Positions 1,691-55,876 of a stretch of DNA of 64,000 nucleotides are shown here, in pieces. Under the pieces are notes generated by a model, which was not told the origin of the DNA, did no database searches, and saw only the letters and a program-made list of their open reading frames with translations. The DNA is from Fimicolochytrium jonesii (taxonomy: Eukaryota): NCBI RefSeq assembly GCF_025526975.1, contig NW_026515692.1, forward strand, positions 62,001 to 126,000, in the 5' to 3' direction. Position numbers and translations under genes: made by a program. Position 1 is the first letter of the stretch. Each line of letters starts with the position of its first letter.

Positions 1691-1746
1691 GTCGTTATAA
1701 TCAATACCCTTGGATTGACAAAAACCTTGAACTACACTGCGGCCCT

Positions 1747-3654: not shown

Positions 3655-3705
3655 GGGTTCACAAAGTACTTCCTCGACTTGGGAAGTTGTTCAACTAAGA
3701 AAAGT

Positions 3706-5613: not shown

Positions 5614-5669
5614 AGGGCCGCAGTGTAGTTCAAGGTTTTTGTCAATCCAAGGGTATTGATTATAACGAC

Positions 5670-12367: not shown

Positions 12368-12780
12368 TGGGAAGTAGGTGTTTTGGGGACACCCACACCG
12401 TCGCTACAACCGCAACAAAGAAGAGTATCCGTTCTTCCGTTTCGTCCATACTTGGTGTACCGTTTTGAGCATTCCACGCCATTCCCGCCACTTTCCGCGT
12501 GGCTATAGCGATTTCCTTAGTTACCGGCGGCGATCCCCGGCATCCATCCATCCATCAGTTCCCGACAACAATCCACCAATCCGACGACGGCTTCCTAGGC
12601 ATCATCGTCCCGGCTATCCATTCCCGCTGAGTATCCATCGATTGGACCACTCTCCGCAACGATCCATTCATACACGTCGTCGTCCCGTGAGAAAAGCCCA
12701 GCTTGAGGTGCAGCCTGGATTTGGGCACTCGCAACAACACAGAGACCGTACTTTTCGTAACCGTCCGTCGAGAATATCCA

Positions 12781-14547: not shown

Positions 14548-14563
14548 GGGACTCCGACCTCCC
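14517..14563 (+). promoter_or_regulatory. Putative -1 programmed ribosomal frameshift signal (G_GAU_UUU plus stem-loop)
   Basis: GGATTTT at 14517-14523 in gag phase, 6-nt spacer, then hairpin GGGAG-C-TCGGAG / CTCCGA-C-CTCCC (14530-14563). The -1 frame is open into pol. Confidence 0.8.
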
Positions 14564-17500: not shown

Positions 17501-20351
17501 GAATGGTGTAGCGCGGGTATGTGCGCACTTCAAGGTCAACAGCGAGATCCAAGCTTTCCGGTACCCCATCATTCCCGCTCACCTTACCTTGCAACGTGTC
17601 GCCGCGGCCGACCGCATCACGGCCTTCGACTTCCGCCTCGGCTATCATCAGTCCCCACTCCATGTCGCCGCTCGTTACCTCACCACCATCTTACTTCCGC
17701 GCGGGATTTATCAGTACAAAGTCGGACCCATGGGCTTCATCGACACGGGCGAATGGTTCTCCTTCCAAATCGACACCATGATCGGCGAAGTCAAGTTACT
17801 CAAGGACCACACCCACCTCTTTCGCGACGACGCTTACCTGTGCGAAGACAATTTAACAGACCACTCCAGACCCACACACATTGACCGCCTCCGCGCATTC
17901 TTGGAAACCGCCCGCACTCACAACGCTTCAATCTCCGAGCACAAATGTCTCTTCGCCGCTGGCCGGGTCCCCGCGCTGGGCAAACTCGTCGGCAATCGAC
18001 AAATCGCGACCACCGCCAGTAAACTTGACGTCGTCGCCCAGTGGCCTACCCCACGCCATCAAGAAGACCTCCGTTCCTTCCGCGGTTTCATCGGCTTCAT
18101 CTCGGACGGGCTTCCTGACTACGGTCTCTTGATGGCACCTTTGAATACGCTCCTCCGCAAAGAATTTGCCGATAAACGCAAGTTCCGCGCCGAATGGCTC
18201 CGCTCCCAAGAGTACTGTCGCGCCTTTTTAGATGTCAAGCAGCTCGCATCCGACAGCTTCGTTCTTCACGCATACAACCCTAATCGGCCATTGATCATTG
18301 CCACCGACGGGTCCGGCACCGGCGCCGGGGTTGTGGTCGCTCATTGTCTCGATCCCGCCGATGACTACCGGGTTACGGCCGACACTCGCTACGTTCCATG
18401 TGAATTCTTCTCCCGCACATGGACCGGAGCCGAGCTTCACTACGAACAACCCGAACGAGAATTGGCTGCCATCATTTTCGGGTTGCTGAAAGCGGAAGTC
18501 CACCTCACCTTCGAATTCTACATTATCACGGATCATCAAGCTTGGGTCAAGTGTCAGAACGCGCATACCAAGAATCGACGCATCCTCAAATGGTTCAACT
18601 ACATCAACGCACTCCCTACCGCTGACGGTTGGCCGAAATATATCTTCCGCCGCACGGCCGCCCACATCGACGCCGACGCTCTCTCCCGTCGACCCGCAGC
18701 CCCGAGCGAACTTCTCACTTCCACAATCGACGATGAGCTGGATCTGACGCATCCGTGCCCGCTGAACGACATTCACATCAGCGCCAACATCAACCTCCTC
18801 ACGCTCGGTTGGGAACCGTACGACTCCATTCACGCTTACCTCCGGGGAGATCACGCATTCCTCGGTACCGACCCGGCACATGCTACGCGCATCCGCTCAT
18901 TGGCTCACCGCTTCTTCATCTACGACGGTCGCCTCTATCGCCGCAGCCTTCCTCGCATGCCACCCCGACTGGTCCCCCGTTTAGAGGATGTCGCAGCCAT
19001 CAAGCGTACCTTCCATGGCGACCATCCGGGCTCCTTTGGCCATCTCGGCGTCTTGACAGCGTATCAGATGATTGCCTTACGCTACTTCTGGTTCAACTTG
19101 TACAGCGACATTGAAGAGTGGGTGCGCGCCTGTCCAGTATGTCAGCTCCGTCAATTACGCCGCCCCAAGCAATACCAGCTGTTTCGCATCATTCCCCCGG
19201 CGCTCCTCTTCACGTTGTTAGGTCTCGACTGCGTCACCTACCCGAACGCCCAGATCGGTCGGTCTTCCCAAGTCTACATCGGCTGCCTCTGCGTCTTTGA
19301 TTACCCGTCCGGCTACGGTTGGGCCTACCCGCTCAAGGCGTTCGACGGCCTCAACATCGTTCTCGCGCTCCGCGATTGGTGCGCTCGGTATGGTGTCCCA
19401 GTTCACATCGTGGTTGACAACGCGCAGTATTTTATTGAAGGCGCATTCGCGGCATGGGCGTCCAGGAAATCGATCGAGCTCGTTCAAACGTCGACAATGC
19501 ACCCCATGGGGAATGGTCGGGCTGAGAAGTTTGTCCAGGACATCACTCGTGTTCTGTCTCACATCGTATTGCAACGGAACTTAGAAGCCAAGGTCGACCC
19601 CCCGGACCTGACGATTTGGCCCGACTGCCTCGATTCGGCGATGTACACTTACCTGAATCACGTCGCCCGGACCACAGCCGTTTCCCCCTACAACGTTGTA
19701 TTCGGCCAGCATTGCCACGTTCCCGGACATGCGACCACCGGCCTGCTCGACCCGGAAGCGCTCGACACCTTGCTCACTGACGAATACCGCGCCGACCGCG
19801 ACGTCCTCCGCACATGGGCTCTTCAGACCGCTAACCGCAACCGCATCCACGAAACCGAGGCCATCAACGCTACCCGCAAACCCCCGAGAACATATGCGGT
19901 CGGTGATTGGGTGTACGTTCATCGCAACGAGCTGGACACGACCTACGTCTCGACCCGCAAGCTCGTCAACCGTTGGACCGGTCCATATCAGATTTCCAAG
20001 GCTTACCCCGGTGGCGCCTATCTGCTCCTAGATGAACACGGGACCCCTGCTTTCAACTCGCGCCCTGTCAACCATCTCCGCTTAGTTCCCGCTCGAGTAC
20101 GCCCTGCGTGGTCCGCCCCCGCGTTTACCGCCGACCTCCCACTCCCGCTCCATGACGACCAATTGGATCCCCCTCCCAACGCTACGACTAAAGAGATCAA
20201 CAATGACTCTCTCTCCGTCCCTGAACCCATCCCGGACGACCTCCAAGTTTCCCTCGCCGTCCTTTCCGCGGCGCTTCCCTCAGACGACATCTCCTCATAT
20301 CCTTGCGAACGCCCCGTCGATCCCGCCCATCCTGTTCGCCGCAGGTGTTGA
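14520..20351 (+). CDS. pol: Pol polyprotein: protease, exonuclease III/AP endonuclease, RT, RNase H, integrase; one in-frame TGA at 16875-16877
   Basis: ORFs 14592..16877 and 17031..20351 are in the same frame, and 16878-17030 is open. PR: KCLFDGG..CLLGRPFL. RT: FDFRLGYHQ, PMGF, FRDD. RH: IATDGS..ERELAAI..TDHQ. INT: H..GHLG..CPVCQ, LGLD, VDNA, GRAE. Confidence 0.92.
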
Positions 20352-28953: not shown

Positions 28954-30192
28954 TCAATCCAGATCAACAACCTCTGCGGATGTGTCTTCATCGCCCAGTG
29001 TTTGGTCATGGGGTACGAAGAAGTCAGAGACTCGTAGTTGGCGTACTTTCATGTCCTGAGAGAATCAATGTGTGAGCATCGCAGATTGAAAGGTCGAAAG
29101 GTCATGGAGAAGTGAGGAACCTACACTTGCGTCGAATTCGTGTAAGAGATGTCCGTCTAGTTCACGGATGGCTTCTCTTATTGGCATCATGGCGGCGTTT
29201 CGGCATAATTCTTTGAGGTCGCTGCCTGTGGAACCAACGGCATATTGTCTCAGATTCTCGTGCGTTAAGGGGTTGGGACTAGGACGAGGGAATAGAGCCC
29301 AGAGGCCCAGAGCAAACGCACCTGAGTAACCTGCTGTCCTGTACACAAGCTCCTTGACATCGAATCCCGGCTCCAAATCCGCACCCGCCAGCAATAACGA
29401 CAGCACCCGCGTCCGTTGCTCCGCATCCGGTAACCTAATCTCGAACCGTTTCGGCATCCGCCTCAAAATCGCCTGATCGATATCGGTTGGACGATTCGTA
29501 GCTCCCAGTACCAGCACCCGCATATCCCCAGTGCTTAACCCATCCCACAACGTCATAAACTCTGCCTTCATCATCGCGGTCACTTCGTGGTCCTGGCTCT
29601 TCCTCTCTCTCAGGAACGAGTCGATCTCGTCAATGAAAATGATGCAGGGCTGCAGCTTATGCGCTAGTGAAAAGACGGCGGAGACTAGTTTTTGCGATTC
29701 GCCGAACCATTTCTCCATCAGCGTCGACACATGCAGGTTGATGAAGGTCGCTCCCGACTCCTTGGCGAGCGCTTTCGCCAGCATGGTCTTCCCACAGCCC
29801 GGTGGTCCGTAGAGCAGCACGCCTTTCGGTGCTCCCAGCAGTCCGGAGGCGGAGCTAAACAGCTGCGGATAACACAGGGGGTAGATGACGGACTCCTTGA
29901 GCGATTTGACGATATGGTCCAGCCCGCCGATATCCTTGAACCCGACGGGAATGTCTTCTGGATACACGACCTCCGCCGCGATGATCTCCTCGTGCTCCGT
30001 CAACTTCAGGACCTGCAGACCCAGCCTGCCCAGCACGCGCGTGCTCTTTGCTTTCGCTTCCTCCTTTTTCTTCTTGAAGGGGTCCATCCCTGCCAGCACC
30101 CATTTGACGCCAAAGTATAGGACGACCTGTGAGAGTGCGAATATCGATACGTCTACGAGGACTTTTTTAGAAGTTGGGTTCAGCTTCATCAT
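28954..30192 (-). CDS. MSP1: AAA+ ATPase Msp1/ATAD1 (two short 3' introns)
   Basis: N-terminal TM, DIGGLD, APKGVLLYGPPGCGKTMLAKALAKESGATFIN, IIFIDEIDSFLRER..DHEVTAMMKAEFMTLWDGL, LGATNRPTDID. Confidence 0.95.
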
Positions 30193-31261
30193 TGCGGCGA
30201 GTGTTCGGGCGGGGGAGGATGCGGTGGGTTGTGAGAGTGGTGTGAAGACCATTAAGAGGGGGGGGGTTGTGGTGAGTGAAAAGACTCGTTTTTTTGGCTG
30301 TAGAATCAGGGAGTGAAGTAGCAGGCTGAGGAGGACTATACGACGTTGACTGACTTGTGCTGAAGTGGGAGCTGTCGAGTATATGTATATATAGTGGTTG
30401 CGGTGAGCAACAAGTATCGGAAGTTGGAGGGGGGTATGTTGCGAACAAGAGGGGAACGCGGACAACGCAGGTTGGAGCGAGAGAGGCCCTTAATCTCGCT
30501 TGAAGGCATTAAGGGAAAATAAATAATTATCCTCAAGGGAGGGCGGAAGAACTTGAAGGTTCTCTTTATGCTCATACCTGACGCGAACCAGTGCTACTGG
30601 AAGACCCGGGCTCCGAGAATCAACGCGTTGATTTCAAACTATGAAGTCGGCCGACATCACGATCGAAGGGCCACCAAATACGGATTGACAGGCATGAGCT
30701 GCTTTGGTCACTATGCAGAAAACAGATGCCGCTTCTGCCTACCTGATCTGCAGACCTGATCTGCCCTGGCGACATGGTGTTCATCTCTGATGGAACAGTC
30801 AGGCGGAACAGCACTTTATCTTGCGGTAGTCATCCAAGAAGCGACCAAACGACAGGCGCCGTGCCTATCTGCAATTCACTCACCAGGCCATGTCAAATAT
30901 GGGCAATTGCAAACGAGATGGCCCGTGTCAAGCTGGAAGCTTTAGAGGCTCACAAAAACCTTGGGCGTGGTGGGCGGAAGAAGAAGGAGAAGAAGAAGAA
31001 CGAAGAAGGGAAACATCGGTGGGACACGGAGGAGGAGTTGAAGATGAAGATGAAGATGGAGACGGCGCCTACGACCGAGGCTATGAAGAAGATGAAGGAC
31101 GAAGAGGCATTGACGAAGATGGAGGAACCGGAGAGGGAGGATTTTATTGGAAAGCTAGAGCGCGGGAGAGCGCGGGTCTTATTGGGAGGTACGTGGGTTG
31201 TACGAGCAGTAACGAAATCTTCTTGCCCTCCTTTTGTTTTTTCCAACAAGTCCATCTCAGC

Positions 31262-33375
31262 TCACTTTACAATCACAGTGAATTCCTGAGACCCTCCCTT
31301 GTCGGAAGTGACTTTTACTTTGCGCGGGTTAATGTTGGTCGCTATGCGGACTTGCCAGGCATTCTTTGCGACGACTACCGGGGCAGGTGTTGTATAAGGG
31401 AGGTCGAATTTGGGCGATACGCAAGCATCATCGGAACACGAGGGATACACAGTGAGCTTGGCGCCTTCTTCGGAGCCCGTGCCCGAGATCCGCAACGACG
31501 CCTTCCCGTCGTAAGTGCCGATATCGATGGTAATCTTATCGTTAGGCTGAGGGTCGGAGGTCTTTCTTTCGCTGAACTTGCTGATAAAGCCTCCGGCGTA
31601 CTTGGTCGCCACAGCATAAGTGTAATCGCGTTTGCCAAATCGGCCGAAAACCGTAACCTGTGCCGCCGTGGTCTCGGTACTCAGAGTCTCGAAAGGGTCT
31701 CCAATCGTTGGACCCGTGCTGCCCTCGTATTCCTGAATGAGATACGATTTGGCATTGGCGTCTTTGTTCCAGGAAATCGTAACGATCGCAGCTCCACCCA
31801 CGACTTTCAGACCCGTTGGGACGGGGACGGGAGCAGCGAGGGTGTAAATGAACTGTGCCTTGGTGAACTCGTCGGAGTCGGAAAAGGCGTAGGCGACATT
31901 GAGTTCGACACGCCCGCCGGGGGCGATCGCAGGAGCTGATTGCGCTAGTTCGATAGGACCGGTATATACCTTGGCGGAGGCGCTAAAGATCGGTTTTGGT
32001 GATTCGGTTTCGTAGATCGGTGTGTTCAACGTGTATTTGATGATTCCGGCGTTCGAAGAAGTCAACTTCACAAACTGAGCCGTCTGGCCTGTGGCTGGCT
32101 CGGCGGCGAGCTTCAGGGGGCCGCGAAGAGTGAATAGGTCTGAAGTCCTCGTAGTCGGATTATCAGTCGGCCCGTGCTCAACCACAGCGCGAATCTGGAC
32201 CGACGTGGCGTCGATAATATTTGGTCCCACGACCGTTATCTGAGTTTGTGAGGCGGGAGCAGGGACATAGGCGCCGACAATGTCGCTACGGACCGCCTTG
32301 GAAGCTTTAGGCTGAAGGACCAGAACATCGTAGCCGGCCAGTGGATTTAATCCAGCCGGCATCGTGGGCTCTTTCCAAGAAACCGTGACAACGTTCTTGA
32401 TTGCCGGGGTTTCACCCGTGGTTTCCACGGTAGTCCAGTATTTGCTGGCAGGAGGCGCGAATTCTTGAGGTCCCGGAGGACAACCACCCATGCCAGGTCC
32501 ACCAGTTTCCCCTAATTCATGGATCGTCAGTCCTCGAGGGAGGGCGTCGGGTGTCACATCCAGCCAGCCCATCACGCGAGCTCCTCCTCCTCTGTAAGCA
32601 ATCTGTGCCGCTTCAACGTCATCAAAAGTGAAGGTGGCTACGAATTGATTATTGTCTGCAAGAAAGTATAGGTGGTCGTTTACTTTGTCTTCATTGCGAT
32701 TTTACAGCACTGGGGGATGACTAAAAATCACGTACCCGGGTTAATGACGAGGGTAGAAGTATAGCCGTCGTGGGTTGTAGGTTGGGGAGCCCGAATGTCC
32801 CGTTTTGTTACGAAAGGGCGGAGATCGGGATTTACGATTCGCACTTCGTAACAATCTTTACATTTGTCTTTGTTGAACGGGTCGACGTACCCTTTCAAGG
32901 TAAGGATTTTGCTGCCATCATACACGACGCTGGTTATTTTAGCGTCGAGTGTCCGAACCGAAGCCTCCTTGATGTTGTCGAAATACAGATCGATGATGTC
33001 TCCGCCAACAATATCAGGGGTGACTTTGATGTCGGTCCCTGCTCCCCAACAGTAACCGCCCGGGTGGTTAATGTCGAATGCATTGGCTCCTCCGCTGACA
33101 ACAGCCTTCACGGATGCGACGACTGTGAGGACGGCGTCAGCGGCTAACCCGGAACGGCTAACCATACGGCTAACCCGGACCTCAGCGATTTTGCCTTGCT
33201 GTGCCCAGTAAGCTTCGACTGTCAAGAAATCGCGATCTGGGAAAATCGATATGCCATTCGGGGGCATGGGAAGGCAGTCGCCACCATCCTGGCATGATAG
33301 GGGGGCGGCGATGGCTACAGCCAAGATAGTAGCCCACACGAGCAGAGACTGTACTACTGCCGAGCCAGAAAACAT
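31262..33375 (-). CDS. Secreted protein with fibronectin type III-like and chitobiase/hexosaminidase C-terminal-like repeats; bacterial-like N-terminal domain; intron 32656-32735
   Basis: Signal peptide MFSGSAVVQSLLVWATILAVAIA. Removing the GT..AG intron joins ORFs 32728..33375 and 31262..32575 in frame. Fn3-like VTVSWKEP..GYDV and VTISWNKD..SYLI; IIKYTLNT..VYTGPI. Confidence 0.8.
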
Positions 33376-33619
33376 GGCGGGCGTGCAGATTGTCGTAAAA
33401 TGTGGGCCGTCTCAGGTTTCTGAGAAGAGAGAGCACTGAGATTTCCTCCTCTGCACGACTACTGAACTTCAGTATCGGCGTCAGGAAATCTCTCGGTGTT
33501 TATAAGTCTTTTGGTTGTCCGCGCTGGGAGACGTTTGGATCCATTCCATTCAGTGAGCGGAAAATTCGCGGCTTACCTACTGTAAGGGTCGCGCTGTCGA
33601 TTTTTGTTGCAAACTTCTC

Positions 33620-33977
33620 ATTTTCGATTTTCCGCCGCTTACCTACAAGGAGGCCCATGTCGGATTCGTCTGTAGGGAGGGCAAGATCAATGGGATCCGG
33701 CGGCCCTCCCTGAACAACGATCCCTGAAGGCAGCACTTATACGCCTCTGCCTATATAGCACCCTGCAATCCGTCCCTGAGGGTGCGTATAAATAGAGGAT
33801 TTTCGATTTTCCGCCGCTTACCTACAAGGAGGCCCATGTCGGATTCGTCTGTAGGGAGGGCAAGATCAATGGGATCCGGCGGCCCTCCCTGAACAACGAT
33901 CCCTGAAGGCAGCACTTATACGCCTCTGCCTATATAGCACTCTGCAATCCGTCCCTGAGGGTGCGTATAAATAGAGG
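33620..33977. repeat. 179-bp tandem duplication in the divergent promoter, each unit carrying TATA-like boxes
   Basis: 33620-33798 and 33799-33977 match except for one substitution seen; each contains TATATAG and TATAAATA. Confidence 0.95.
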
Positions 33978-34037
33978 CGGCAACAGCAGTCATGTTTTTT
34001 CGGCATGTATTGCTAACACTGAGGACACTGCTCGGCC

Positions 34038-37000
34038 ATGCGCACATCGCGGCAGAATCTTGTAGGCACACTGCTGCTGGGTTCTCGTGGCGCTTGGGCA
34101 TTGTCTACGGCGGGATGCGGGGGTAGGAATTTCCGTCCAAGATCATTTTGATAGCGGGACTGCCACCCAGGTTTTCGTCGGCTAATGACGTTTGAACAGA
34201 TCCGACTTCCTCCATCGAGGGTGTACTTAGTGATCGGAACGCATGTGTCCCAGGTTCCGGTGTTCAATGCCGTCCCTGGGAAATCAGTAAGTTTTCATAA
34301 GCACCACTGGTATTGGGACCGAGCACTCCGAAAGCTCACACCACATGCTCTCTCTCTAGCCGTCGACGGGAACCGAGATTGCTTGGAGAAATCCACTACA
34401 AATGTCTTCCCCCCGACCGGGGCTGACTGGGTTATCGTCGAGCGTTCTTACGGAGAAAACTGCAAAGGATGTAAGTCACTGTTTAGCCCTTGGAGGTTGA
34501 GTCAGATGAACGCCGGACGATTCTTGACACATTGTGGCATTTGCTAGTTTTACAGGCGGCATGGACAAAGGCCTATAAAGTCGGCGCGCAGGCAAGCGAC
34601 AAATGCGTGTACAGCTGCCCGGCCGGTCATCCTCAACGAACATGCGGTGCAGTTGTCGAAGACTTACTGACTGATTGTGAGCTGGGCCGTACCGACAAAG
34701 ACTTTAGTGAGATATGGTATTGCGCGAGTACAACATGGCCAGGCGCGGGGTATACCTCGGTGGCACCCGGTGGAGCTCCAGCCACGCCCGGTGCGCCAGG
34801 CGAACCTGCTAAACCCGGTGAACCGCCGGTTATTCCGCCTGTGGCCTCACCAACGACAGCGACAACGACAAAGACGAAGACGACACGGGTGCCAACCCCA
34901 GTCCCGACCCGAGATGTGCGAAGTGGGGAGCGCTTCTTCCGTAAGATTGGATGGATGACTGACCACCCGCAGCTACTTTGACCACAACTCATCAACGTTC
35001 CCCATTCGCTTTCTCAGCGCTTATTGCAATAGGAGTGCCACTCGGTAAGAAGGACTTGCATTGCATTCTTATTATTCCTCAAATTCCTCAATCAGCACAT
35101 CGGTAGTGTACAACAACTACGGCGATCACGACCCGAAAGGTCTCATCTTCGCGCACGCGCGCAACAAAGAGCATCTGCTGCAAGTGATCGATGACTATCC
35201 CGACAGGCTGGCGGCGAAGGTGATATGGATCTATCCTCTGAGACCTTCCAAATCGGTTTTCCTGACATTAGCGTCTTACAGAATTTGACGGTCGATCCTG
35301 TTATCACCCCTTTGGTGCTGCGCGCCAGAGTCGGCGAACGTGTCATTATTCAGCTCGAGAATCTCATACCAGACAGATTTGTCGGTATCCATCTGAACGC
35401 CGCAGGATATAACACTTCCAGTGACGGGTCCGCTGTAGGGAAGAACCCTCATTCGCTTGTTGCGCCGAACGGTACGCGAGAGTACGTCTGGGAGCTCGAG
35501 CACGAAGGGCCGTTCTTCTTTCAAGGTACGTCAAGCAGATTGACCTATGGTAGGGCGTAAGGTGTTCACCACTCATGTGTAATACGGAGCAGATGCCGGA
35601 GACCTTAACGGTGGGAAGGAAGGCACCAACTCCCATGGCTTATTCGGAGCCATCATTGTTGAAGAAGCCCACGCCGTGTGGACTGATCCAGAAACTGGGG
35701 CGGAACTCATCGACGGACCTTACGCTGATGTTCACCCACCCAAGCGCGGGTAAGTAATGCATGGCGGCTATGACAATTCCGGAAGCATTCGGCCCCTTAT
35801 TATTGGCACAGGCGGCAGGCGCGAAACAATCTTCCTGGGTGGGGATCAGACCCTCCGAAATACCCGCCGGATGAAGCGTCTTATAGAGAATTCGTCGTAT
35901 TCATTCACGACGAAGTGGAGGCTTATAATCCTGACCTCGAAGAAGGTACGTGAGCATCATCACAGACATAACTCCTCCGAACTAGCCCTAACTGACTCTC
36001 CTAGTGCCAAGCCCTTGCGGAGCCGACGCTCCTAGTGCACAAATGAGCATGAGGAAGCCCGCGAATGCTCCAGAAGTCGAAGTTGGAGGTGCTGCGGATG
36101 CTGCTGCTGCGGAGATGCCGCATGCCGCCGAACAAATTGTTTTAGGTGCCCTTGCCGAGGCAGCCGAGCAAGCAGACAAGGACCTTGAAGGTCTGCCCGG
36201 TTTGCGAGCTGTGGAGATTATGCCTATAAGGTAACTTAGCGAGCTGCGAGTTGTGTGCTCGCTGCGTACGATGCCTTGCTGAAGCCTTTGTTGGTTTAGT
36301 TATCGCTCTGAGCCGATGTTAAACCGCCTTCGAATTATGCATAAGCGTTACAACCGAGGAGAGTACAAGGATGACCCTGATGCGCCCCATGATGAAGAAG
36401 GTAAGGATCGGAGCGGCTTTTGGACAGCTGTTGAGAAGAGGTCGACCGGGACTTAGCGAATCCTGTTCGCACCCATCCCCTTAGTGCACCATAGTTCATG
36501 GATGTTCGGCGACCCGGTTACCCCTATCTTAAGGAACTACATCGGCGATCCGCTACGGATCCACGTGTTCCACGCAGGTGTGAAGGAGACACATGTTTTC
36601 CACTGGCACGTTCACCAGTGGCACGCAAACTACAAGGACCGCACTTCCCCGTTGATTGATGCAATGCTTCTCGGACCGCAAATGGCCTATACCGCTGTTG
36701 GTCTTTACGGTTCCGGGTCTCGACTGCTAAATCCCGGAGATGTCATTTGGCATTGTCATTTGTATCCGCACTTCCACCATGGGATGTGGGGTATCCAAAG
36801 ATCCTATGACACGCTTCAGAATGGAACCATGAAGTATCCCGACGGCACTCAGATCAGGCCGCTCCTCCCTTTGCCGGATCGCGAACGCCCGCCGCTTCCA
36901 ACCGCTGAGAAACCTGGGTTTCCAAACTTCATCGCGGGGAAGATGGGCAAAAAGTCCCCCCGCGTGCCTTGGCCGGAGAGCAAATTCGGCCCTGTGCCCG

Positions 37001-39783
37001 AAGGCTACACCTACCGACCGGCGACGGAGTTAGAAGTAGCTGCCATGAACGACGACCCTGTCCCAGGAGGGCTCTTCGTCAAGATACCATTCTCGAGAGC
37101 GCTCCCATCCGTCCAGTATAACATCAGCGTTATCGAGAGAAAAACTAAGCTGAACGAGCATGGATGGTTCGTGGACCGCGCAACAATGTTCATCATGGAT
37201 AATGAGATTCCCGACGTCGATCCGTCCGAGCCTTATCCATACGAGCCGTTTGTGGCCCGAGCAAACAAAGGTCAGGTCATCGATATCACTGCCATCAATA
37301 GGTTGCCGAAAAAGTCCCTTGCCAATCGCCATGACAATGCGCTGCCCGTATGCGGTGCTATTGGTTATCAGGGCGAAAGTTCTTTCCATGTTCATTTGGT
37401 AAAGTTTGACGTGATGTCCGCAGATGGCTCATCGACTGGTTGGAACTACATCAGTGCGCCTAAAGCCGGCGAGAAGTTTTATTACAAATGGTGGGCCGAC
37501 GAGGAGTTTGGCAGTATCTTCTTCCACGATCACCTCTTTGCGAACACTCGACAGAAAGCCGGACTGTACGGGAACATGGTCATCGAGCCTGAGGGCAGCA
37601 AGTACTTCAATCCTCGGACCAACGCACCTATGATTGCTGGACTCGAAGCGAGAATCGAGACACCCACCGACTCTTACAGGGAGTTTGCGTTCTCCTTTGG
37701 CGACTTTGTACCTGCCTTCAACGGTAGTCTCAGCCAAGCCATCCGTCCGCCTACAGCACCTGGTGGTATGGACGATCCTGGTATCTCGATGATCGGGTAT
37801 CGAGCCGAAGACCTTAACTATCGAGCCTCGCGCGGAAATCCTGAAACGTGGTTCTCCAGTCGCAAATTCAAAGAACCCGTCACTCATCTCTACGAAGCTT
37901 ACCCTGGTGACAAGATCATCCTTCGCATAGTTCAAGGAAGTCACGAGGAGGATCACTCTTTCCAAATTTACGGCATGAAGTGGCGCGAGTTTTTGGATAA
38001 CCCTACATCCAAATGGACGAATCAAAAGTCGATCGGAATATCGGAGGCGACGAACCTTTGGATCGATCGAACGTACGGACCAGGCGATCATATGTATAAG
38101 CTTTCTGGAATCAATGATCTCTGGACGGGAAACTGGGGCATTATTCGGGTCCACGATGGCATTCGACCAAACCTACCCCTGCTATCTTCAAACCGGAAAC
38201 CGAACTTCCGTCCACTGTCAAACATATTTTCGCTCAACTCCGCTGCTGGAATGAAGACGCGGGAATACCGAGTCGTCGCAACCCGCAGGCAGATTGACTA
38301 TGACAGTGATCTCTCCGACCCGTTTGGCATCATGTATGAAGTGGACTCGTACAAGGAACCGGATGGCGCGTGGCAAGCCGTGTCGTCGTTTGGCAAGAAG
38401 CCGGAACCCTTGGTTCTCCGCGTGCGAAAAGGAGAGCTGCTCAAGATCCATTTGGAGAACCGGCTGATCACTTCAATGAAAAAGGAGCCGGCCTACGCGA
38501 GGATTGCGGTGGAGAACGACGCCCGAAACGTCTCCAATCACATCTCCATCCATGTGGATGTGTTGCAGTTCGACGTTCGAGACTCGATGGGTGTGAATCT
38601 GGGTTGGAACCCTGATCAAACTGTTCCACCAGGCCAATGGAAGACCTATACGTATCACGCTGACGAGGAAGTCGGAGCGGTACCCATGCACGATATGGCC
38701 GATGTGAGAAATCACCGTCGTCACGGAGCAATTGGAGCGGTTGTTGTTCTCGAACACGATGCTGTGCCTGATCAATGGGTCGGGACTTCGACGGTCATAC
38801 GTGTCCCTTCCACAGGGCTCATCTATGATCAGTCAGTGCTTGTTGTCCAGGATGGGCTACGCCACTTTAAGAACGGGGATTTGACGATGAATGTCCTAGA
38901 TACGCCTGTAAGTGATGAGGACGAGGATAGAGGTCAGAAGGGCATCAACTACCGTTCCTGCCCGACACACCGGAGGGTCAATGAGACCCACGTGCTCTTC
39001 GATTCCCCCGGGGCGCTGGTGTTACCAGGAAGGGCAGGACGGCGCCACAAGATTTCTGTCATCGGAGGTACGGAACGAGAAAGAATGATGACTATTCACA
39101 TTCACGGTCACACCTGGAAACGATGGCCGACACCTGGGGTCGCGAGTCCCTATGTCAGCACCATTGACGGCATTACATCGGGATCCGCGGTGTTGATTGA
39201 CTTGGAGAACCCCGTCGAAGGAGACTGGTTGATCCGTAACGGTGGGTAGCTATTCTGAACTTTTCGACGATGTGGTCATTGACTGGTAGTGGTTATTACT
39301 ATTAGGGGTCAGCCTCTTCGGCGTTACTGACGGGATGTGGGCAATTTTGCGTAACGGTCCTGCTCAGGCTGAAACGCTGGGTACGTATATGCATAGGCTT
39401 AATTTGCGCGAGAGTGCACCCCATAGGACGCCTGTTAATCTCCTATCGCTCACTATCAAACTACAGAGGAGAAACCTCGCAAGTCGTCGATACAACTTCC
39501 ACCCAAGACTACGCCGACGTCTGTTCCGAACGTCACCAAAACTCCCACGGCCGACGCCAGTAAGAGTGTCGACTCGAGCGTTTCAATAAATGAGGCCACG
39601 AGGATTCCGACCGTAATGCCGTCGAGCTCGGCCAAGGCAAGCCAACCCACTACGGCCAGTGTCCCTACGAGTGAGCACCGCGATGCGACATCGCCCGCCG
39701 TTGGAAATCTTCCGTCTCTGCCCATATTGACGACAGTTGTCTTGATTGGACTTGGAGGATTCTTTTTAGGACGCGGCTTTTAG
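34038..39783 (+). CDS. Large MnxG-like multicopper oxidase 1 (multi-exon; start codon approximate; C-terminal Ser/Thr stalk and hydrophobic anchor)
   Basis: NNYGDHDPKG, PLVLRARVG, EEVHHSSWMFGDP (across intron 36401-36484), GVKETHVFHWHVHQW, HCHLYPHFHHGMWG, HVHLVKFDV..DG..GWNY, FFHDHLFAN, QGSHEEDHSF, NHRRHGAIG, DRGQKGINYR; ends ILTTVVLIGLGGFFLGRGF*. Confidence 0.9.
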
Positions 39784-40911
39784 ACTTTTATGTCCTGTAT
39801 TGTCTGCTGAATATTTCATATCTTTGGCATGCTTGTTTGAGTCATCATGAAAATAACGTTGCAAGGATGGCACCAGATCGGCTGTGCAGGAGGCGGTGAT
39901 CCCGACCGCAAGAACCAATTCCATCTCCGATGTGAATTGAGTTTTCCCTACCTACAACACCTCGCCGCAACGACGCCGCGTCGTCAAGGGGGTCTGAGCA
40001 TCGCAGCAGATATGTGCGGAGTTAGAGGCCGATGCGGGAAATTTCACTTGAATTTGGTAGTCGATCTAACAGAATATAACCCAACGGACCCAGTGACATA
40101 TCCGTCTCCTACTACGAGGCGGTAGATGCCACTGTGGATTGGAAGTCCAGGAATTTCGCATAGCAATTGGTGGTTTGAATGTCCCAGCGGACGCTGACGT
40201 TGGAGGCCGCCTAAAGAGCTCCATCGGGCGCTGCAAACGAGGAGAATGTCGGAAAATCAGCGGTTGGAATCCGGTATGTTGCCACGACCGTTTGGCGGTT
40301 CGAAATGGATGGCCGTGCCAGAAGGGCTATACGGCCACCGCATAGATCGATAGACGCCCAAGAATGCTCCCGACACGGATGCTGAGGTGGTTGACTGTGC
40401 TGTTTGGTGTATGTATAACCGCAAGGGCGCTTTACTTCTAGGGAGCTGGATCCGGACTTACGACCTCATGTAACAGTATGTTGGGCCGACGGACGAAGCT
40501 GCGTTTGGGTGGTGTTGGAGACGCACCAGCCGCGCGTGGAAATCGACAGCGCGATCATCCGCTATACGTGTTCGTGTCCGCCACATGCGCGAGACCCTCG
40601 CAATCGAGTCTTTTTCAGTTCATATTCGAGACATGAAGCTCATCCAGAAGCCAGTCATCAAGTTACCGTTCTTTCGCACCTCCGAAAATTGCAAGTAAGA
40701 GGAAAAATGTTCCATTGAAATTTCATATACTGTACTATAAAGAATTGAAGATCTGATCCCAAATACGCCGTACACAAAGTAATGTCCAAAGAGTGGCAAT
40801 GTTCCCAAAACGAAAACGAAAGTCGAATGATGGAAAAGGAATAAAAGTGGTCGGGAAGGACGAGACAATTGCGAAACAGAAGGCAGGTCATCGCAAGTAT
40901 CCGAGCAAAGC

Positions 40912-43900
40912 TCAGAGATGACCGGAGAAACGAACGGACGGGATATCGGCAGTGCTCTTGTCGTCCTTGTCGGTCTTGTCCTGCTGCAGGCCATCATTTC
41001 GATGGGGAGCCTCGTCCACGAATTCGCTTCCCACATCTACTTCCTTGGGGCTCACGCGCAAGATAGACCACATTCCTTCCATAACGTGCGATCTGATCGG
41101 TGCGAGTACGGGAAAGGTATCGGTACTGTTTAGCATCACTCCTCCAAGCTCCCCGAAAAACAACGCCGTCATACCGAACAAGGCCGAACCGCCCAATCTC
41201 CTTGCCTGTCGGCCTTGAACACGAACGTCTCCGTGCGTCCCGGGTTGATCGCATTGTCCACGCCTGTCGCAGTCGCTCCCGCGTTCTCAATCTCCGAAAA
41301 CACATGTCCGTGCACATGCAGCGAAATCGCTCGCGGCTTATCGTTCGCGGCTACCATATGGAACATCTGGTACCTTCCTTGGACCGCATGCCAGATGGGT
41401 GTGGGCGGGTTGTCGGGTTGAAGCCAGATGGGGTCAAAGGTTGGTGCCGAGCGATAGTTCAGCCCCTTTTGTCCTTGATCTTCCGGGTCTGATCGTCGTT
41501 TGAGCAAAATGAGAAGGGGAACGGCGCGCGCTTGAAGAACAAAATGTTCCATCTTTACCGATCTGGTTTGCCAACCGCCGCATATGAGGGTGACACAAGT
41601 CCCGATCGTCGTCCGGCAAGGGCATCTGACCATGCTGCTCCTTCAACCAGACTGAGATGTTGCACGCCTTGAAAAAGAACGGGTCACGCAGGAACTGAGC
41701 AAGGGTGTGCGGTCTCGGGGCTTGCAAATCGTTCATAATCTCGGCATTCGCAACATCGCCGTCCGCTCCGGTGTTCACGTTCGTGTCTATGTCGGGGATG
41801 GGTTCGTTCGGATTTCTTCTGTTGAAGAGTCGCAAGCCTAGTAATGACAGACAGACAAAGTCAGCATGGGACCAAGCGACAGGCGGAAACAGGGGTGTCT
41901 CTTACCATCCTGCAACAAAATGACATGCTCATCCATGACAAACACATCATCCTCATCGATTCTTGGATGGAACCCCATAGCGCCGCCCGCTTGATTGAAC
42001 CGAATACTCGCGCTGTCGTCAAACTGCCCGGGTACTGACCATACGCGCTGTAGCGTAGCTTCCTGACCGTACCAACGAGAGGGAAGCCACCCTGGGGGGC
42101 GAACGACGAGCGCGCCGATTAGACCGTGGTGCCGATGGTTGCGGAAGTCGGATTGATCTTGAAGGACGATGGGGCTGCCATAGAACTGGGAGCCGGCGAA
42201 CATTCATCAGCCGAATGAATAACATAACGCAACGAAAAACAACGATTCTTCTCCTTTTGGTTAAAGCAGTTTCGTACCTGGTCCGCAAACCACGTGAAAG
42301 GCCGAGTTTCGCCGGGTGGGACGGTTTGGTCCGGATTGAAACCGACTGCAGCAGGAATGGGATTAGGGCCCGCCTTGAAGTCGCCACCTGAGGAACTTGA
42401 AAGACACGGATGAACCCACCATTGGTCCCATCGTTCGTACGGGTATCAAAGAGAACGATGTCAGCGTGGATGGAAACGTGTTCCGAGACTCTGCGGAAGT
42501 TCAACAGATCCACCGGGACTATTGAAGAAGAAGGAAAAGAACGGCATTAAGGGACGATTCTCGCCAAAAGGGCCAGCGTAGAGACCGCCCGCATAAGACT
42601 TACCTTCGGGTCTGTGCTTTTCCGCCACCAGGTCCCGACGAATATTGTTGGTGAGCCACACCGTCACAAACTCGCCGACCTGGGCGCGGATGACTAGCGG
42701 TTCCGGGTTCTTGCCCTTTTGCGCCACAGAAATCCATGTATTCGTTCCAGGCTCTACAAGGGCGGATTTGACCAGATGTTAGTTTACGCATCCTGTATGT
42801 TACACATAACCCCGAGGGAACGAACCTTTGTAAGCCTCGAGCCGATAAACCAAACCAAACGGATCCTTCCAGGCTGCCCCAAAAATCCCTCCGTATAATC
42901 AATCAGCCTCGTTTCCGCAACGACCCGGTATTCTCTGTGGCGGCTTGGGTTGATCTTAGCCGGTAAGTGCGGCGTGGTACGGTTGTTGAACGGGTCCGCA
43001 TTGCTGGGGAGCACCGGCAGCGATGCGTTCAGGTGGTCAAAGACACGAACGAGCGACCAGCACCCGAGCCATGTATCGTCGATCACGCCCCAGTAAATCA
43101 GGTGATCGCCAGGCGTGTAGTCTCCCTCGATGATTTTGGTGAAGGCCTTGGAGATGCCGAGAATTTGCTGATCTACGAGGCGCGAGTCGGGGTCTGTCCA
43201 GAGGTCGTGCCAGCGGAACCCGTACGCATTGAACGAATGAGACTCTTCGTGCGAGCCTTGCCCGATGCGTAGCCGGATGGTATCGTTTGGGTATGACTGG
43301 TAAATAGTGGTGAAGGGATCGCCGAAGACTTTGGAGTCCATCAGCAGACGCGGGTCCGGCTCCTGGTGATGCTCGCGGCGGAAGCGTTTGATGCGTTCGC
43401 GGAAAGGTTCAGACTTGTAGTTGACCACCATGACGCCGTTGTCGTTGAGTGCGGACGGGAAAGGCGGCGGGTTGATTGGGATCCCAACTCTTGTGAACGC
43501 TGGATGCTGGTCAGCCACAAACTGGACAATTTCGCAGAACCAGTCGCCGTCCGGCTTGCGGATCGCAGCTTGGATCCCCGTGAGCGTGCGTTGAGCCAGA
43601 TTGTTGTTCAAGAAGTATTCCGCACCTGGAGTAGTATTTGGAACCATTGATCAGAACTCTGCGAAGGCTGGCATGCACAGACCGAAAAAACTGCGGACAA
43701 CAGAACTCCGAAAGGCTCAATCGGCGACATTGCATACAATCCGCGCTTTTGACGGGTTTGTGGGAAGAGATGGTCGTGAAAGAAGACATGACCGAATTCC
43801 TCGTCTGCCCACCAACGCGCAATGTAGTACCGCCCGAACCGAGCGCCACTGATGTAGTTCCAACCGACGGAAGCTCCATCAGAACACTGGACATCAAACT

Positions 43901-46350
43901 TGACTAGGTGTACGTGCATGCCGACCTCCCCTTCCAAAGGATGTTTCGGGCAGTCGGGCACTGCCATTTCGAAAGCGTCTTCGGGCAGGAAGGTGTCGAA
44001 CTTGTTTTTAATCGTGTTGACGAGGACATTGCCGTGATTGCCGCGGAGAATCAATGGGTCGTATGGGGTAGGGGTGTTCCGGTCGCCAAACTCTTCCTCC
44101 TCAATCATGTAGATATGGCCTTTCGGATCATGCCAGCCGTAGTTGTTGAACAAAATATCTTTATTGATTGCTGAGACGTTGTGCTTGACCTCGCGTACAG
44201 GGATTCCGCGATCGATGAACCCCGTTTGCGGGTGGGAAACAGGGCCCAGAAGTTTCCGGGCTGGGGGTTGGCGTTCATCGCAGCAACCTCGATAGGGTTG
44301 GCAGGACGATAGTCTGATCCCTCAGGGATGGGGCCGAGTATTGCCTCGGGCCAGCCAATGCGAGGGGACTTCTGACGGAACTCGCCGGGAATGAAGTTTG
44401 GGAAACCAGGCCGAAGAGCGGTGGGTGGCGGCGGAGGTTGACGGTCGGGGAGCACGAACAGGGGCTGGATCTGACTGCCGTCGGGGTAGCGTTGAGACCC
44501 ATTTTGGAGCTTATCGAATACGCGGAAGATTCCCCACATGCCGAGCGTGAAGTGAGGGTACAAATGGCAGTGAAAGATCACATCGCCGATGGATTTCAGT
44601 CGTGAGCCCGAGCCATATAATGCGGTGAACGTCGTTGCCCATTGTGGTGACAAACTGAAGGAATCAGTGATAGGGCTGTCGGTCTTTCCGTCGACGGCAT
44701 ACCATTGATGCACATGCCTAGCGGGCGGAATGATAAAGTGAGCGAAACTTGTATTCGTTGCCCAGCTACAAATCTAAGCTCACAACTCACCAGTGGAACA
44801 CATGCGTCTCTTGGACGCCGCCGTGGACAACCCGAAACTTGGCGGGATCTCCAGCGTAGTTGGTGAACACCAAACCCGGGTCGCCATGCATCCAAGAGGA
44901 ATGGTGCTGTTCTTCCCCGAAAACGGGACGCTTAAGGATGCCGTTGTTAATGCGGTCGAATACGTCGGATTGACGGTTGCGGAGGGGTTCGGAGCGGTAG
45001 CTACGATGGAAATGAAATGCGTCAGGAATATGGGATTAGGGGGTAACCTCATGGGATCCGTAACCTACTTGATTGCGTGAACAGCATCATTGTCTCTTGT
45101 TTCGACGTCCGGCCTTCCGACAGACGGCCCCGGTTGCCCTTCGCCGCACGGGTTTTCCGTCAACTTGAAACCCTTTCTGACTTCCGCTTGATCATGGAAA
45201 ATAGTGACGTGCTCGCGGAATGAAGCGCTAGGGTCGTGCAATTCGGGCTCCTCGCGGAAGAAGTCGGCTTTGAAGTTCCGGTACCCCGATCGCTTCGGTG
45301 GATGGATATCAGCAGTAAGGCCGTCGCGGATAGGCTTGCCGGTGTGGGGATGCGTCCTGAATTTGGGACGGTGCTCCAGATGTCAGTCTTCTTCTTCAAC
45401 GCGGTGTGTCATCTCGACTTTAGCAACTCCGCTACTCACCAGCGAGAGCCGAAGGGTTCCACCACCAACGCCCCAAAGAGGCCGTGTAGATTGGTATCAT
45501 TTTCGCGCCCGCCGAGGTTGCCTGCATCACACCTTCGTGGCCACACTGCCAATGGTACTGATAGCGGCCGCCTGGAGGTGCGAGAGACGGAGGGTTCCTG
45601 CCGACTGAACCAGCAGTTACGATGGAGTGAATGACGAGGGCACCTCGCAATAAGAAGACTCACCAGCGGACCCGTCGTCCCTCACATCATGCCCATCCAG
45701 AGCAACGTGGAGGCCTACAGCATGCTTGCGAATGTGGTTCTCCAGGTTGACGGTGACGGAGTCGTGCAAGTTGCAGCGAAGCACAAGAGGGCGCACGAGC
45801 GGGTTGAGCTCAAACCGGCGTGCAGTACGCGAAGTCGCATTGATTGAGTTGGGGACAAAGTTCTCGGAATAGCGTTCGAGGGCTTGCTCGTTCTCTACAA
45901 GGGAAAAAGCAGCACCAGCTATTGCATCTAAGCTTTTTCAAGGTTTTGCCCAATGTACCTTTCAACGCAAACATGAGTCCGTTGGGATCGTGATCTGAGC
46001 ATCGGGAATTGAAAGCGCGGATGAGACTGAGTGATAATGATATGATGAGCGACAAGCAAATCCAACGTACCTCCGTAAATGTTGAACACGATAGGAACTT
46101 CAAGCGCCACGACATCTGTTCCGAGAGCACAGATGATATCGACAAGGAACCCCTGTATTAGTAACGGCTTGAAACAGCCTCGCTTGAATGCTTAAATCAC
46201 AAATCCAGTACCGTAATGACGATGCTGCCGTTCAACGGGCACAGTCAAGTCGATGCCATTAAGGTCATAGACCGGGACAGCCGGAAGTGCATTGATGCCG
46301 AGCACCCCGTACACAAGCAGTGACAATCGCGTGATGCGTTTAAGGATCAT
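40912..46350 (-). CDS. Large MnxG-like multicopper oxidase 2 (multi-exon, signal peptide)
   Basis: MILKRITRLSLLVYGVLGINA; DVVALEVPIVFNIYG|DHDPNG, GDVIFHCHLYPHFTLGMWG, HVHLVKFDVQCSDGASVGWNY, FFHDHLF, QGSHEESHSFN, NHRHHGLIG, DQGQKGLNYR, LHVHGH. Confidence 0.88.
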
Positions 46351-53378: not shown

Positions 53379-53946
53379 AGGCGACAAAATCCTTGTACGC
53401 ATTCAAGGCATCCAGTATGGATCTGCCAAACATGGCTCCCCCCTTAGCTACCGTCACCAGTGCTGACGAAGGCAACGGGCTCATGTTCGGCCTCCTGGGG
53501 AGAGAACAAAAGGCTTCGATGGGCGCTGTCAGCATCAGCGTAGAGAGACTGCGTACGAAATGCATGTCCGTATGGAAGCCGATTTGGAGTTGGGACTCGG
53601 GAGGGGGGGTTGCATTACGTATAGCCGTGGCTTTCGCTGACCTCTCCCGCCGGCGCGTCATCATCATCGGTTTGGCGCGAAGGGCGCGAGAGGCGTTCTG
53701 CAAAAAGTTGGCGTCGCAGGGCTCTTCTCGGCACGGAATGTTCCGCCGGCAAGGCTTGCGGTGATCGTATATAAAAGCGTGCTGCCTTCCCGAGAGCTTT
53801 TTCTTTCCAGCCAGGGCAGCTTCGGAGGAGTATTGAATCGTTTCTTGCTGGGTTTCAGGAAACAGTCGGAGAGTTTGACACTTTCCCTTCCTCGCTACTC
53901 ATACCAAGTGTTTGCTGCTCCCATACCACAACGACGAGAACAGAGA

Positions 53947-55876
53947 ATGTCTTCCCCCATGCTCACAACAAAGGCCGGAGCGGCCACTGCCCTCCTGGCT
54001 CTCCTCCTCCCAACTTCCGTGCTATCCTTCGACACCGGCCCGCACAACGACCTTGTTCGCAACACCCTCGAGCTGTACGGCTATTCCCGCGATGCCCAAG
54101 CGCTCTCCGCATTCGCCAACTGGGCCACCGACATGTACGCCTTCACACCCTCTCTGGGAACAGATTTTGCTATCGTCCCTGACCATATCGCCGACCTGGA
54201 AATGCAGCACTGCAACAACCTCTACTCGGTCGTGTATGGAGCAAACTATATTTCGCAACATGTGGTCAACTCAAAGGCGGCGATCCAGGACGCTGTGAAG
54301 AGGGGAAGCGTATTGGACTATTTGGCTGTTGTTGGGACTAGTTTGCACACCTACCAGGATCTCTATGGTGAGTTGGGCGCGTTAGATAGCGGGGTGCATT
54401 TTGATTGAGAGCGGAGGCTGATCAGAGGCGGTACTTCCCGAAACATAGCACACTCGAACTGGGCCGAGTTGCACCGCCGTAAGGACTGCGAATGCTACGG
54501 CGTCACAGACACCTTCATGGGTGAACTTATCGCGGCCAACAGTTCCGTAGACACCCTGCTCACAACCAGCCCCGAACTTTCCGGTTGGGCTACATACGAG
54601 TGGCTGGACCGTAACTACCCAAGTAAGATCATGGAGATTTTAGCCTATCATAGGATCCCTTACCAACCCCAGTTCCATAGACTTCAACGTTAAGGGTGGA
54701 ACAGTCGAACACGGCCAATACTGCTCTGGAGTCAACAAGGACAGCTATATCCGCCCATACTACGAGGAGACCTTTGCGTACGCTTTCGCCTCCAGTGTCG
54801 AGTGGTTGTACAACCTCGAAAAATGGGCTGGGGAGGTCGAGGCTAGCAACGCCACGTTGAACGCGGCGAAAAACTGGGCACCCGCGAACCAGACCGACCA
54901 CGACGCCTTGTACAAGAACTTCGACGAGGCGTTTGAGGTGTCGTACTCCACAACCAAAGGAGTTTTCGGCGATGACAACGGACACTGGAAGGGAGAAGGC
55001 TCCGGCTCTCTCGGCACTATGGCCAAATCGGTCGCGTCGTTCGCAAAAGACAAGACCACCTTCACCAACCTGTACCTCCGCTCCGAGAACCCCGTCTACA
55101 AACTGATCACCAACCCATACCCCTACAATTTCCTCAACACATCGACGGATGTTGTCACGGGCGTTGTTCTACCGGACGACTCGTTGATCGCACAAGCTAC
55201 GAGTGTTTACACACCTTGGGCGAGGCTGCCCGCGCAATACACGGACGTGACCGCGGTCGTGGTCCGCACCAAGCATTACCGCGTCTCCGACGACCTCAAC
55301 GGAAAGTTCTCCGACGCCGACCCATGGGCGCAAATCACCATCAACGGCATGGAAATCCGCGAATCTCCTATGCAAAACAAGAAAGAGTTTACACCCTACT
55401 GGACGACCCTGAAGTTTGTGCCCTCAAATTCCTCCCAAACCATCAACTACGTCCTCCAGGACGCTGCGGCGACCTCTATGATCGAGCAACAGATCCCCAT
55501 CTCGGACGATGCCAACGGTGCACTTACCCTAACCTTCGATACGAAGAGCAAGCGCGTGTCGGGGGGAAACATCAAGGAAGGCGTGTACAACAACTACACG
55601 CTGACCTTCATTTCGCAAAAGACCAACGGGTCCCTTGTCGAGCTCTACATCGACGCGCGGCCGTTGAAGTGCCCGAATGTGAGTGCCGCTGTCGCCTCGT
55701 CGCAGGAGTATGTTACGTTCTGCCCGAACACGGCGTTTGGCGAGTTGGGTGTGTTTACTGGGTGTGATGGGGCTAAGCTGGGTACGACGCAGAATACTGC
55801 TGAGGGCCCGGTCGTGGCAAATGTGAGGGTGGCGGCTGTCGTTGCTGCCGTCGTTGGTGCTTTCATGGCGCTTTGA
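53947..55876 (+). CDS. Secreted, probably GPI-anchored protein with a Het-C/vWA7-like Zn-dependent phospholipase C-fold domain
   Basis: Signal peptide, FDTGPH, NWATD, HCNN, LHTYQDLY|AHSNW across an intron, GVNKD, hydrophobic C-terminus VAAVVAAVVGAFMAL. Confidence 0.7.

Follow-up and report, generated by a model that had tools for sequence, protein, structure and literature searches.

A 64,000-nt stretch of the genome of the chytrid fungus Fimicolochytrium jonesii (NW_026515692.1, positions 62,001-126,000, forward strand; hereafter the window) carries, at 31-46 kb, an intact gene for a multicopper oxidase (MCO) of the bacterial MnxG family, here called gene A. We judge the chances to be about even that this gene was acquired once, from bacteria and by an early fungus, and that its product, tethered to the cell surface, couples the oxidation of a metal ion (Mn(II) being the most likely) to the reduction of O2, a proposal built from sequence and predicted structure. 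Two further genes share the locus: gene B, a paralogue convergent with gene A, and gene C, which lies head-to-head with gene A at a start-to-start interval of 662 bp. An earlier reading of the bare sequence (the original prediction) had put forward this layout, in which the two MCO genes converge and an Fn3-type gene diverges.

34038..39783, + strand: gene A, MnxG-family MCO, six domains, 14 exons, 1608 aa, intact (identical to public protein P0001)
40912..46350, - strand: gene B, MnxG-family paralogue with signal peptide, about 15 introns and five breaks
31262..33375, - strand: gene C, predicted secreted protein with Fn3/Ig-like domains, 677 aa, 2 exons (33375-32736 and 32655-31262)

A 921-aa open frame within gene A agrees in every letter with P0001, a 1608-aa protein of F. 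jonesii, and spliced alignment returns that protein exactly, across 14 exons and 13 introns of 59-86 nt each, all with the GT..AG borders that had been predicted. The oxidase core occupies approximately residues 223-1495. Among 177,635 PDB sequences searched with phmmer, gene A has two matches, of which only MnxG of Bacillus sp. PL-12 (entry 9bxa, the Mnx complex MnxE3F3G) is strong (E 1.4e-204, aligned in register from residue 3 to 1090); the other is ascorbate oxidase (E 5.6e-7). An AlphaFold2 model of the large exon, covering domains 2-6 and computed from a 93-row alignment, has a mean predicted local distance difference test score (pLDDT) of 92.5 and a predicted template-modelling score (pTM) of 0.93. 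In a Foldseek search with this model, 9bxa ranks first (E 2e-95, query TM-score (TMq) 0.88, 33% identity in the structural alignment), followed by ceruloplasmins at TMq 0.55-0.57, with laccases at 0.23-0.24. Sequence and predicted structure thus both place gene A with MnxG, as originally proposed.

The order of the copper motifs points the same way. In gene A, as in MnxG, it is permuted: HxxHxH and HCHxxxHxxxxM precede HxH and HDH.

36586..36786, + strand: domain 2 copper motifs of gene A, HVFHWH (H596, H599, H601) and HCHLYPHFHHGM (H649, C650, H651, H655, M660)
37387..37539, + strand: domain 3 copper motifs of gene A, HVH (H861, H863) and FFHDH (H907, H909)
37936..37974, + strand: domain 4 motif of gene A, GSHEEDHSFQIYG, in which the last His of the bacterial motif is replaced by Tyr

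All 12 canonical ligand positions (10 His, one Cys and one Met) are kept in an intact frame, so that the complete set for the type 1, 2 and 3 (T1, T2 and T3) copper sites expected after splicing exists in gene A, but not in gene B as spliced (see below); the roles of individual ligands are those we assume from MCO convention. The non-canonical motifs EExHH (EEVHH in both proteins) and HEExH are also common to gene A and MnxG and are likely metal-binding sites. Core versions of the motif series listed in the original prediction occur in order in genes A and B, and eight of the motifs have no match in any of the six frames of the remaining window; in gene B, however, GDHxPxG is split by an intron and another element reads GVQETH. 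The best family match of gene A is the MnxG equivalog NCBIfam NF041487, at 213 bits against a curated cut-off of 3100; the Bacillus orthologue P0080 also falls below that cut-off (348.5 bits).

These data dispose of two other family assignments. Fungal laccases, Fet3 and bilirubin oxidase have the same kinds of copper ligand as gene A and are secreted, and Fet3 has a C-terminal anchor, but they are three-domain proteins with a different motif order, and the laccases show little likeness in fold. Ceruloplasmin, hephaestin and Fox1 are extracellular and share the six-domain architecture, and some eukaryotic six-domain ferroxidases are membrane-anchored; nevertheless, identity to gene A is 12%, phmmer finds no match at E 0.001, and the trinuclear site of these proteins lies between other domains than in MnxG. 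Here the likeness is one of fold only. Compared with MnxG of 9bxa itself, which has the same six cupredoxin domains and full ligand set, gene A falls outside the Bacillales clade and adds introns, a leader, a Cys-rich domain, linkers and an anchor.

The phylogenetic position of gene A suggests a bacterial origin. Homologue searches were examined through the best 120 of 1542 matches and, in a second search, the best 120 of 2453. The first set holds 13 named fungal proteins, the remainder being bacterial or without a name, and the second adds, among fungi, only gene B's own model; the fungal genera in these matches are Fimicolochytrium, Spizellomyces, Powellomyces, Rhizophlyctis, Borealophlyctis and Basidiobolus. 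In trees rooted on a distant family member, the 14 fungal rows (8 chytrid and 6 Basidiobolus) form a single clade nested within the bacterial family, with FastTree support of 1.0 among 189 rows and a Shimodaira-Hasegawa-like approximate likelihood ratio (SH-aLRT) of 100 among 65; with 11 fungal rows among 36, a quick tree under the site-heterogeneous LG+C20 posterior mean site frequency (PMSF) model also gives 100. The smaller sets of 65 and 36 rows were picked by hand from the 189, with rows shorter than 940 aa and more distant matches excluded. The sister clade is a mixture of soil bacteria, with named Actinomycetota, cyanobacteria, Archangium, Belnapia, Pontibacter and others (for example P0005 from Actinomycetota, P0006 from Leptolyngbya, P0052 from Geodermatophilus and P0033 from Archangium); the pairs measured between this clade and the fungal proteins show 48-50% identity over trimmed columns. 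These relatives differ from gene A in being leaderless and in keeping the domain 4 His.

The Bacillales branch lies further out, and a grouping of the fungal proteins with Bacillales, as would follow from a Bacillus donor or from orthology with Bacillales MnxG, is rejected by the approximately unbiased (AU) test (p 5e-46; all AU tests used fast constrained searches under LG+F+G4). The proposed likeness to Bacillus MnxG therefore stands at the level of the family, while the nearest kin are uncharacterised soil-bacterial proteins. Horizontal acquisition from bacteria and intron gain, as originally suggested, are both supported, the former by the nested fungal clade. It is likely, from the trees, that all fungal MnxG-family genes derive from one bacterial transfer into an early fungus. 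Vertical inheritance from the last eukaryotic common ancestor with near-universal loss, or bacterial contamination, is very improbable: further eukaryotic members could hide among the many unnamed rows of the matches examined, but the named eukaryotic ones are chytrids and Basidiobolus only, their clade is nested in bacterial lineages, and 13 spliceosomal introns together with eukaryotic neighbours exclude contamination. The G+C content of the region of genes A-C (approximately 0.51-0.55; value 0.544), the neighbouring genes (an AAA gene and an AIM3/BBC1-domain gene) and the retrotransposon debris around them likewise indicate that the DNA is fungal.

Literature searches found no paper on fungal MnxG-type genes. 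The 23 MnxG homologues given in the consulted part of PMC3600357 are all bacterial or archaeal; the five accessions of fungal MnxG-family proteins sought were not found in the consulted part of a transfer survey that includes Spizellomyces punctatus and Basidiobolus meristosporus (PMC11291939); and the words oxidase and copper are absent from the main text of PMC7466969, whose transfer-candidate tables may list the Basidiobolus copies. The fungal branch of the family is real and apparently unpublished.

A duplication, as originally proposed, did occur, but it is ancient and not local. Genes A and B are only 45% identical, against 59% between gene A and its Borealophlyctis orthologue; the AU test rejects the two as sisters, the signature of a recent tandem duplication (p 2e-7), and other chytrids and Basidiobolus carry orthologues. 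A chytrid A+B group without Basidiobolus is rejected at the borderline (p 0.038), and a group of A with Basidiobolus is not rejected (p 0.11). Two of the nine oxidase-region introns of gene A are shared with gene B at the same site and phase (0.036 expected; P 6e-4, or 0.014 under a fivefold site bias), and one of the two marks the join of leader and first strand. The 11 non-fungal proteins inspected begin at that first strand and are leaderless; most full-length fungal rows have a hydrophobic leader. In the simplest history that can be inferred, one old transfer was followed by early gain of introns and leader, duplication, and loss from most fungi. A leaderless bacterial gene would thus have acquired introns and a secretion leader, and would have duplicated into A and B before the chytrid and Basidiobolus copies split; the A line would later have gained its Cys-rich domain, linkers and anchor, and gene B would have decayed recently in the F. 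jonesii genome. A fungus-to-fungus step to Basidiobolus may also have taken place. In one Basidiobolus sub-clade (among P0008, P0018, P0014 and P0017) HEExH is changed to H(D/N)KxH, and two B. meristosporus copies carry consecutive accession numbers, lie on contigs of equal length and are probably adjacent.

The regions added to gene A at its two ends, which had escaped the original prediction, bear on where its product would act.

34038..34940, + strand: exons 1-4 of gene A, encoding a weak signal peptide, a Cys-rich domain (approximately residues 22-160) and a linker rich in Pro and Thr (161-222)
39467..39783, + strand: last exon of gene A, encoding a stalk rich in Ser, Thr and Pro and a hydrophobic C-terminus (hydropathy over 15 residues 2.37)

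Exons 1-4 end at an intron site common to gene B, and the leader, Cys-rich domain and linker are missing from the bacterial kin inspected. The Cys-rich domain has no match to a Pfam family and no usable match in the ESM Atlas. Secretion signals had been predicted throughout; the signal peptide of gene A is weak (hydropathy of the best 9 residues 1.9, compared with 2.5 in gene B and 2.6 in gene C). From its hydropathy, the C-terminus of gene A is predicted to be a glycosylphosphatidylinositol (GPI) or single-pass anchor. A comparable hydrophobic C-terminus is found in none of the 13 other fungal MCO rows, two of which look partial.

Secreted and tethered at the cell surface, the gene A product would take electrons from its substrate one at a time at the T1 copper of domain 2, in line with established MCO chemistry, and would pass them along the His-Cys-His path to a trinuclear cluster between domains 2 and 3, where O2 would be reduced to water. 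Mn(II) is the leading candidate substrate, with a confidence that stays a little short of even: every characterised member of the family is an Mn oxidase, and gene A retains the extra His/Glu motifs. Three points lower that confidence, namely the need of Bacillus MnxG for MnxE and MnxF, the uncharacterised status of all the nearest kin, and the fact that ferroxidases, too, can be extracellular MCOs anchored at the C-terminus. Other observations weigh against the proposed role of gene A as a whole. Identity between gene A and the Bacillus MnxG orthologue is only 42% over trimmed columns. At the last His position of the domain 4 motif, all 8 chytrid rows carry Tyr, but 6/6 Basidiobolus and 153/175 non-fungal rows have His. 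The leader is weak and the anchor is predicted from hydropathy alone.

Bacillus MnxG requires both MnxE and MnxF for activity (PMC5622069); whether Mn oxides can form without the MnxE/F ring is a point raised for pseudomonads in PMC13689576. Profiles of MnxE and MnxF, built from 8 and 9 homologues and confirmed against the 9bxa chains, match in 10 of 87 bacterial oxidase loci. In the 64-kb window the best hit has E ~4 and no partner was found, as the original prediction had already noted, which again counts against Mn(II). Nor is either partner present beside the bacterial genes of the fungal sister clade (0/7 loci, three of them shorter than 5.5 kb), and for this reason the absence was probably inherited rather than due to loss in fungi.

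Two other substrates must be considered for a gene of the same origin. The product could be a cell-surface ferroxidase that, in the manner of Fet3 or hephaestin, turns Fe(II) into Fe(III) and so serves iron uptake or detoxification. The predicted anchor, the ceruloplasmin-like six-domain fold and the lack of MnxE/F in the window would all suit this role, and the algal six-domain Fox1 is a ferroxidase (PMC3600357); against it, the sequence and motif order of gene A are those of MnxG and not of ceruloplasmin. We regard a ferroxidase as unlikely, though as a close rival to the Mn(II) reading. Alternatively, gene A could encode a laccase-like oxidase of organic matter (phenolics, humic matter, or pollen and dung polymers), held near its substrate by the Cys-rich domain and linkers, an option that we also consider improbable. 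The combination of a Pro/Thr linker and a small Cys-rich domain is reminiscent of secreted fungal enzymes, and the replacement of His by Tyr in domain 4 would fit; MCOs are, moreover, generally promiscuous (PMC3738974). Retention of EExHH and HEExH in all chytrid rows that cover them argues against this option. To our knowledge, the characterised six-domain MCOs are all metal oxidases.

Should gene A prove to encode a secreted single-chain relative of MnxG, early-diverging fungi would become candidates in soil Mn cycling, and such a protein would probe whether the family makes Mn oxides without the MnxE/F ring. Stages in the taming of a foreign gene are also on display here, from the gain of introns and an ancient duplication to the addition of targeting domains and the decay of one of the copies. 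What the locus contributes to the family is a paralogue that is deeply divergent and predicted to be surface-anchored, a second copy in decay, and a neighbour whose relatives belong to bacterial copper-oxidase islands.

Gene B is 91% identical over trimmed columns to its Powellomyces orthologue, and against it shows a 13-nt loss at approximately 45529, 1-nt losses at approximately 44230 and 42873, a donor site reading GA for GT at 43708 and a net 5-nt loss at approximately 41180. Spliced at its true introns, it meets a stop after 270 aa, ahead of every canonical ligand, so that the proposal of two oxidases of more than 1000 aa each holds for gene A but not for gene B. The public 1303-aa model P0181 masks the breaks by false introns and skips the FFHDH copper ligands; the initial model of our spliced aligner, which likewise placed false introns at the breaks, was discarded. 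Gene B is most probably a recent pseudogene. It is unlikely that it is a working second oxidase whose five breaks are local assembly errors, even though each break can be read as a short deletion, two of them of one base, and reading through them with X gives 1429 aa without internal stops and with all ligands. Genes A and C adjoin it unbroken (P 0.008 for all five breaks falling in B under uniform errors), and the 13-nt and 5-nt losses are unlike homopolymer slips. Gene B alone, moreover, alters residues whose conservation across the non-fungal rows reaches 90% or more (K365Q, R739C and E262Q). On the other side, and against decay, gene B has not changed more than its orthologue overall: across 611 columns that are fixed in four further orthologues, it carries 13 amino-acid changes and Powellomyces 16. 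Radical changes number 6 of 13 in gene B against 2 of 16 in Powellomyces (p 0.09), and the test for relaxed selection is not significant.

The intact frame of gene C encodes an N-terminal beta-rich region, in which the motifs NHPGGxCW and GGPGMGGCP are conserved, and then Fn3/Ig-like domains; the public model P0121 includes a false extra last intron that displaces the conserved C-terminal domain. In its structural model (pLDDT 74.9), beta-sandwich domains follow one another in a chain. A fold search with this model returned only generic beta-sandwich matches (TMq at most 0.15), and the ESM Atlas gave no usable match for the N-terminal region. The closest known proteins are actinobacterial Fn3/Fn3_assoc/CHB_HEX_C proteins (the P0122 family), approximately 35% identical over the full length and with the same domain series. 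H104, C109, W110, W244, E260, E263, M269 and C272 are conserved between gene C and this family; gene C differs in its one spliceosomal intron and in its position outside the bacterial radiation that was sampled, on a long branch of 1.68. A search with the second exon (7995 candidates scored) gave 56 matches, made up of its own protein, four from named actinobacteria and others without a taxon name; no other fungal gene C is named among them.

In bacteria, relatives of gene C keep company with copper oxidases. Scanning one genome for each prokaryote species yielded 447 of them, and the best 80, whose loci were examined, are all from Actinomycetota. A bilirubin-oxidase-like three-domain MCO lies within 10 kb in 32 of these 80 loci (24 of the 65 with full flanks), more often in Micrococcaceae (20/26) than in other groups (12/54). 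Gene order in these loci varies, an S26 signal peptidase is often present, and the MCO copy inspected has a twin-arginine leader. Among 400 evenly drawn Actinomycetota genomes, with the centre left out, 6 carry an MnxG-family gene and 5 a relative of gene C, with 3 carrying the two together (Fisher p 1.9e-5, uncorrected for kinship), and an MnxG-family gene occurs elsewhere in the genome in 5 of 50 genomes with a gene C relative. In five loci (L039, L137, L163, L165 and L170) a gene C relative lies 0.2-8.6 kb from a distant MnxG-family gene. These observations make it likely that the gene C product assists copper oxidases outside the cell and that the gene came from Actinomycetota in a transfer of its own. 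Gene C is probably co-expressed with gene A from their shared promoter interval, and its position there is unlikely to be idle, since its family is tied to copper oxidases in bacteria. It may also simply have landed in a stretch rich in mobile DNA.

Several further results bear on the link between A and C. The MnxG-family genes that adjoin gene C relatives in bacteria belong to clades distant from the fungal ones, and none of the 7 sister-clade oxidase loci has a gene C relative. No fusion of the gene C domain to an MCO was seen among the MCO proteins examined. Complex prediction for domains 2-5 of gene A with the N-terminal region of gene C scored 0.00, which speaks neither for nor against an interaction. 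Co-transfer in an operon with a close MnxG relative was rejected, a strong match being present in none of the 80 gene C loci and a distant one in a single locus.

Gene C and the oxidase might still have arrived in one transfer of a bacterial copper-oxidase island, gene C having been lost or missed in other fungi. The five bacterial pairings and the long branch outside the sampled actinobacterial radiation, which implies an old transfer, would be compatible with this; the distance of those five oxidases from the fungal clade, the absence of gene C from the sister-clade loci and from other fungi among the 56 matches, and the contrast between its one intron and the 13 of gene A make it doubtful at best. 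No stronger is the case for the most ambitious view of the locus, in which the chytrid would have rebuilt a bacterial copper-oxidase island by two transfers, bringing a surface-tethered MnxG-type maker of Mn oxides, working without MnxE and MnxF, and an actinobacterial accessory under one bidirectional promoter; from the evidence at hand this is quite improbable. If true, eukaryotes would have their first MnxG-type system of manganese biomineralisation, and the gene C family would gain a function. The link between that family and copper oxidases in Actinomycetota is a separate lead.

The actinomycetotal island itself recurs (L008, L010, L012, L017, L039, L056, L165, L167 and others) as a bilirubin-oxidase-like MCO, an S26 signal peptidase and a gene C family protein, often with a BTAD/response regulator; in some genomes a long MnxG-family gene is added, and L039 has in addition a small cupredoxin-like frame. 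The one literature search directed near this island gave no description of it. The N-terminal domain of gene C, which has no Pfam model, is present in two or three copies in long actinobacterial proteins (L165 13100-16927, L170 11231-15169, L168 6714-12119 and L169 6609-12866) and seems to represent a domain family that is new.

The interval between genes C and A contains a near-perfect repeat, which may be a recent promoter duplication or an assembly artefact.

33620..33977, inside the C-A interval: tandem duplication, 179 bp, 1 mismatch, two TATA-like words per copy

A bacterial promoter scan of this interval gave no match, the method being ill-suited to eukaryotic DNA. Immediately to the left of gene C, an AAA ATPase gene (29065-30489, - strand) is presumably Msp1/ATAD1-like, judging by its motifs. 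A predicted secreted protein with a hydrophobic C-terminus (53641-55876, + strand) has no Pfam, NCBIfam or plasmid match; for lack of an informative match, this protein of 53.7-55.9 kb was set aside as a sign of a transfer hot spot. Retrotransposon pieces at 318-7042, presumably Copia-like by their motifs, are duplicated as a large, near-identical inverted pair centred at approximately 3680. A Gypsy-like element at 12691-20351 carries an endonuclease/exonuclease/phosphatase domain between protease and reverse transcriptase in pol, an unusual order for a long terminal repeat (LTR) element.

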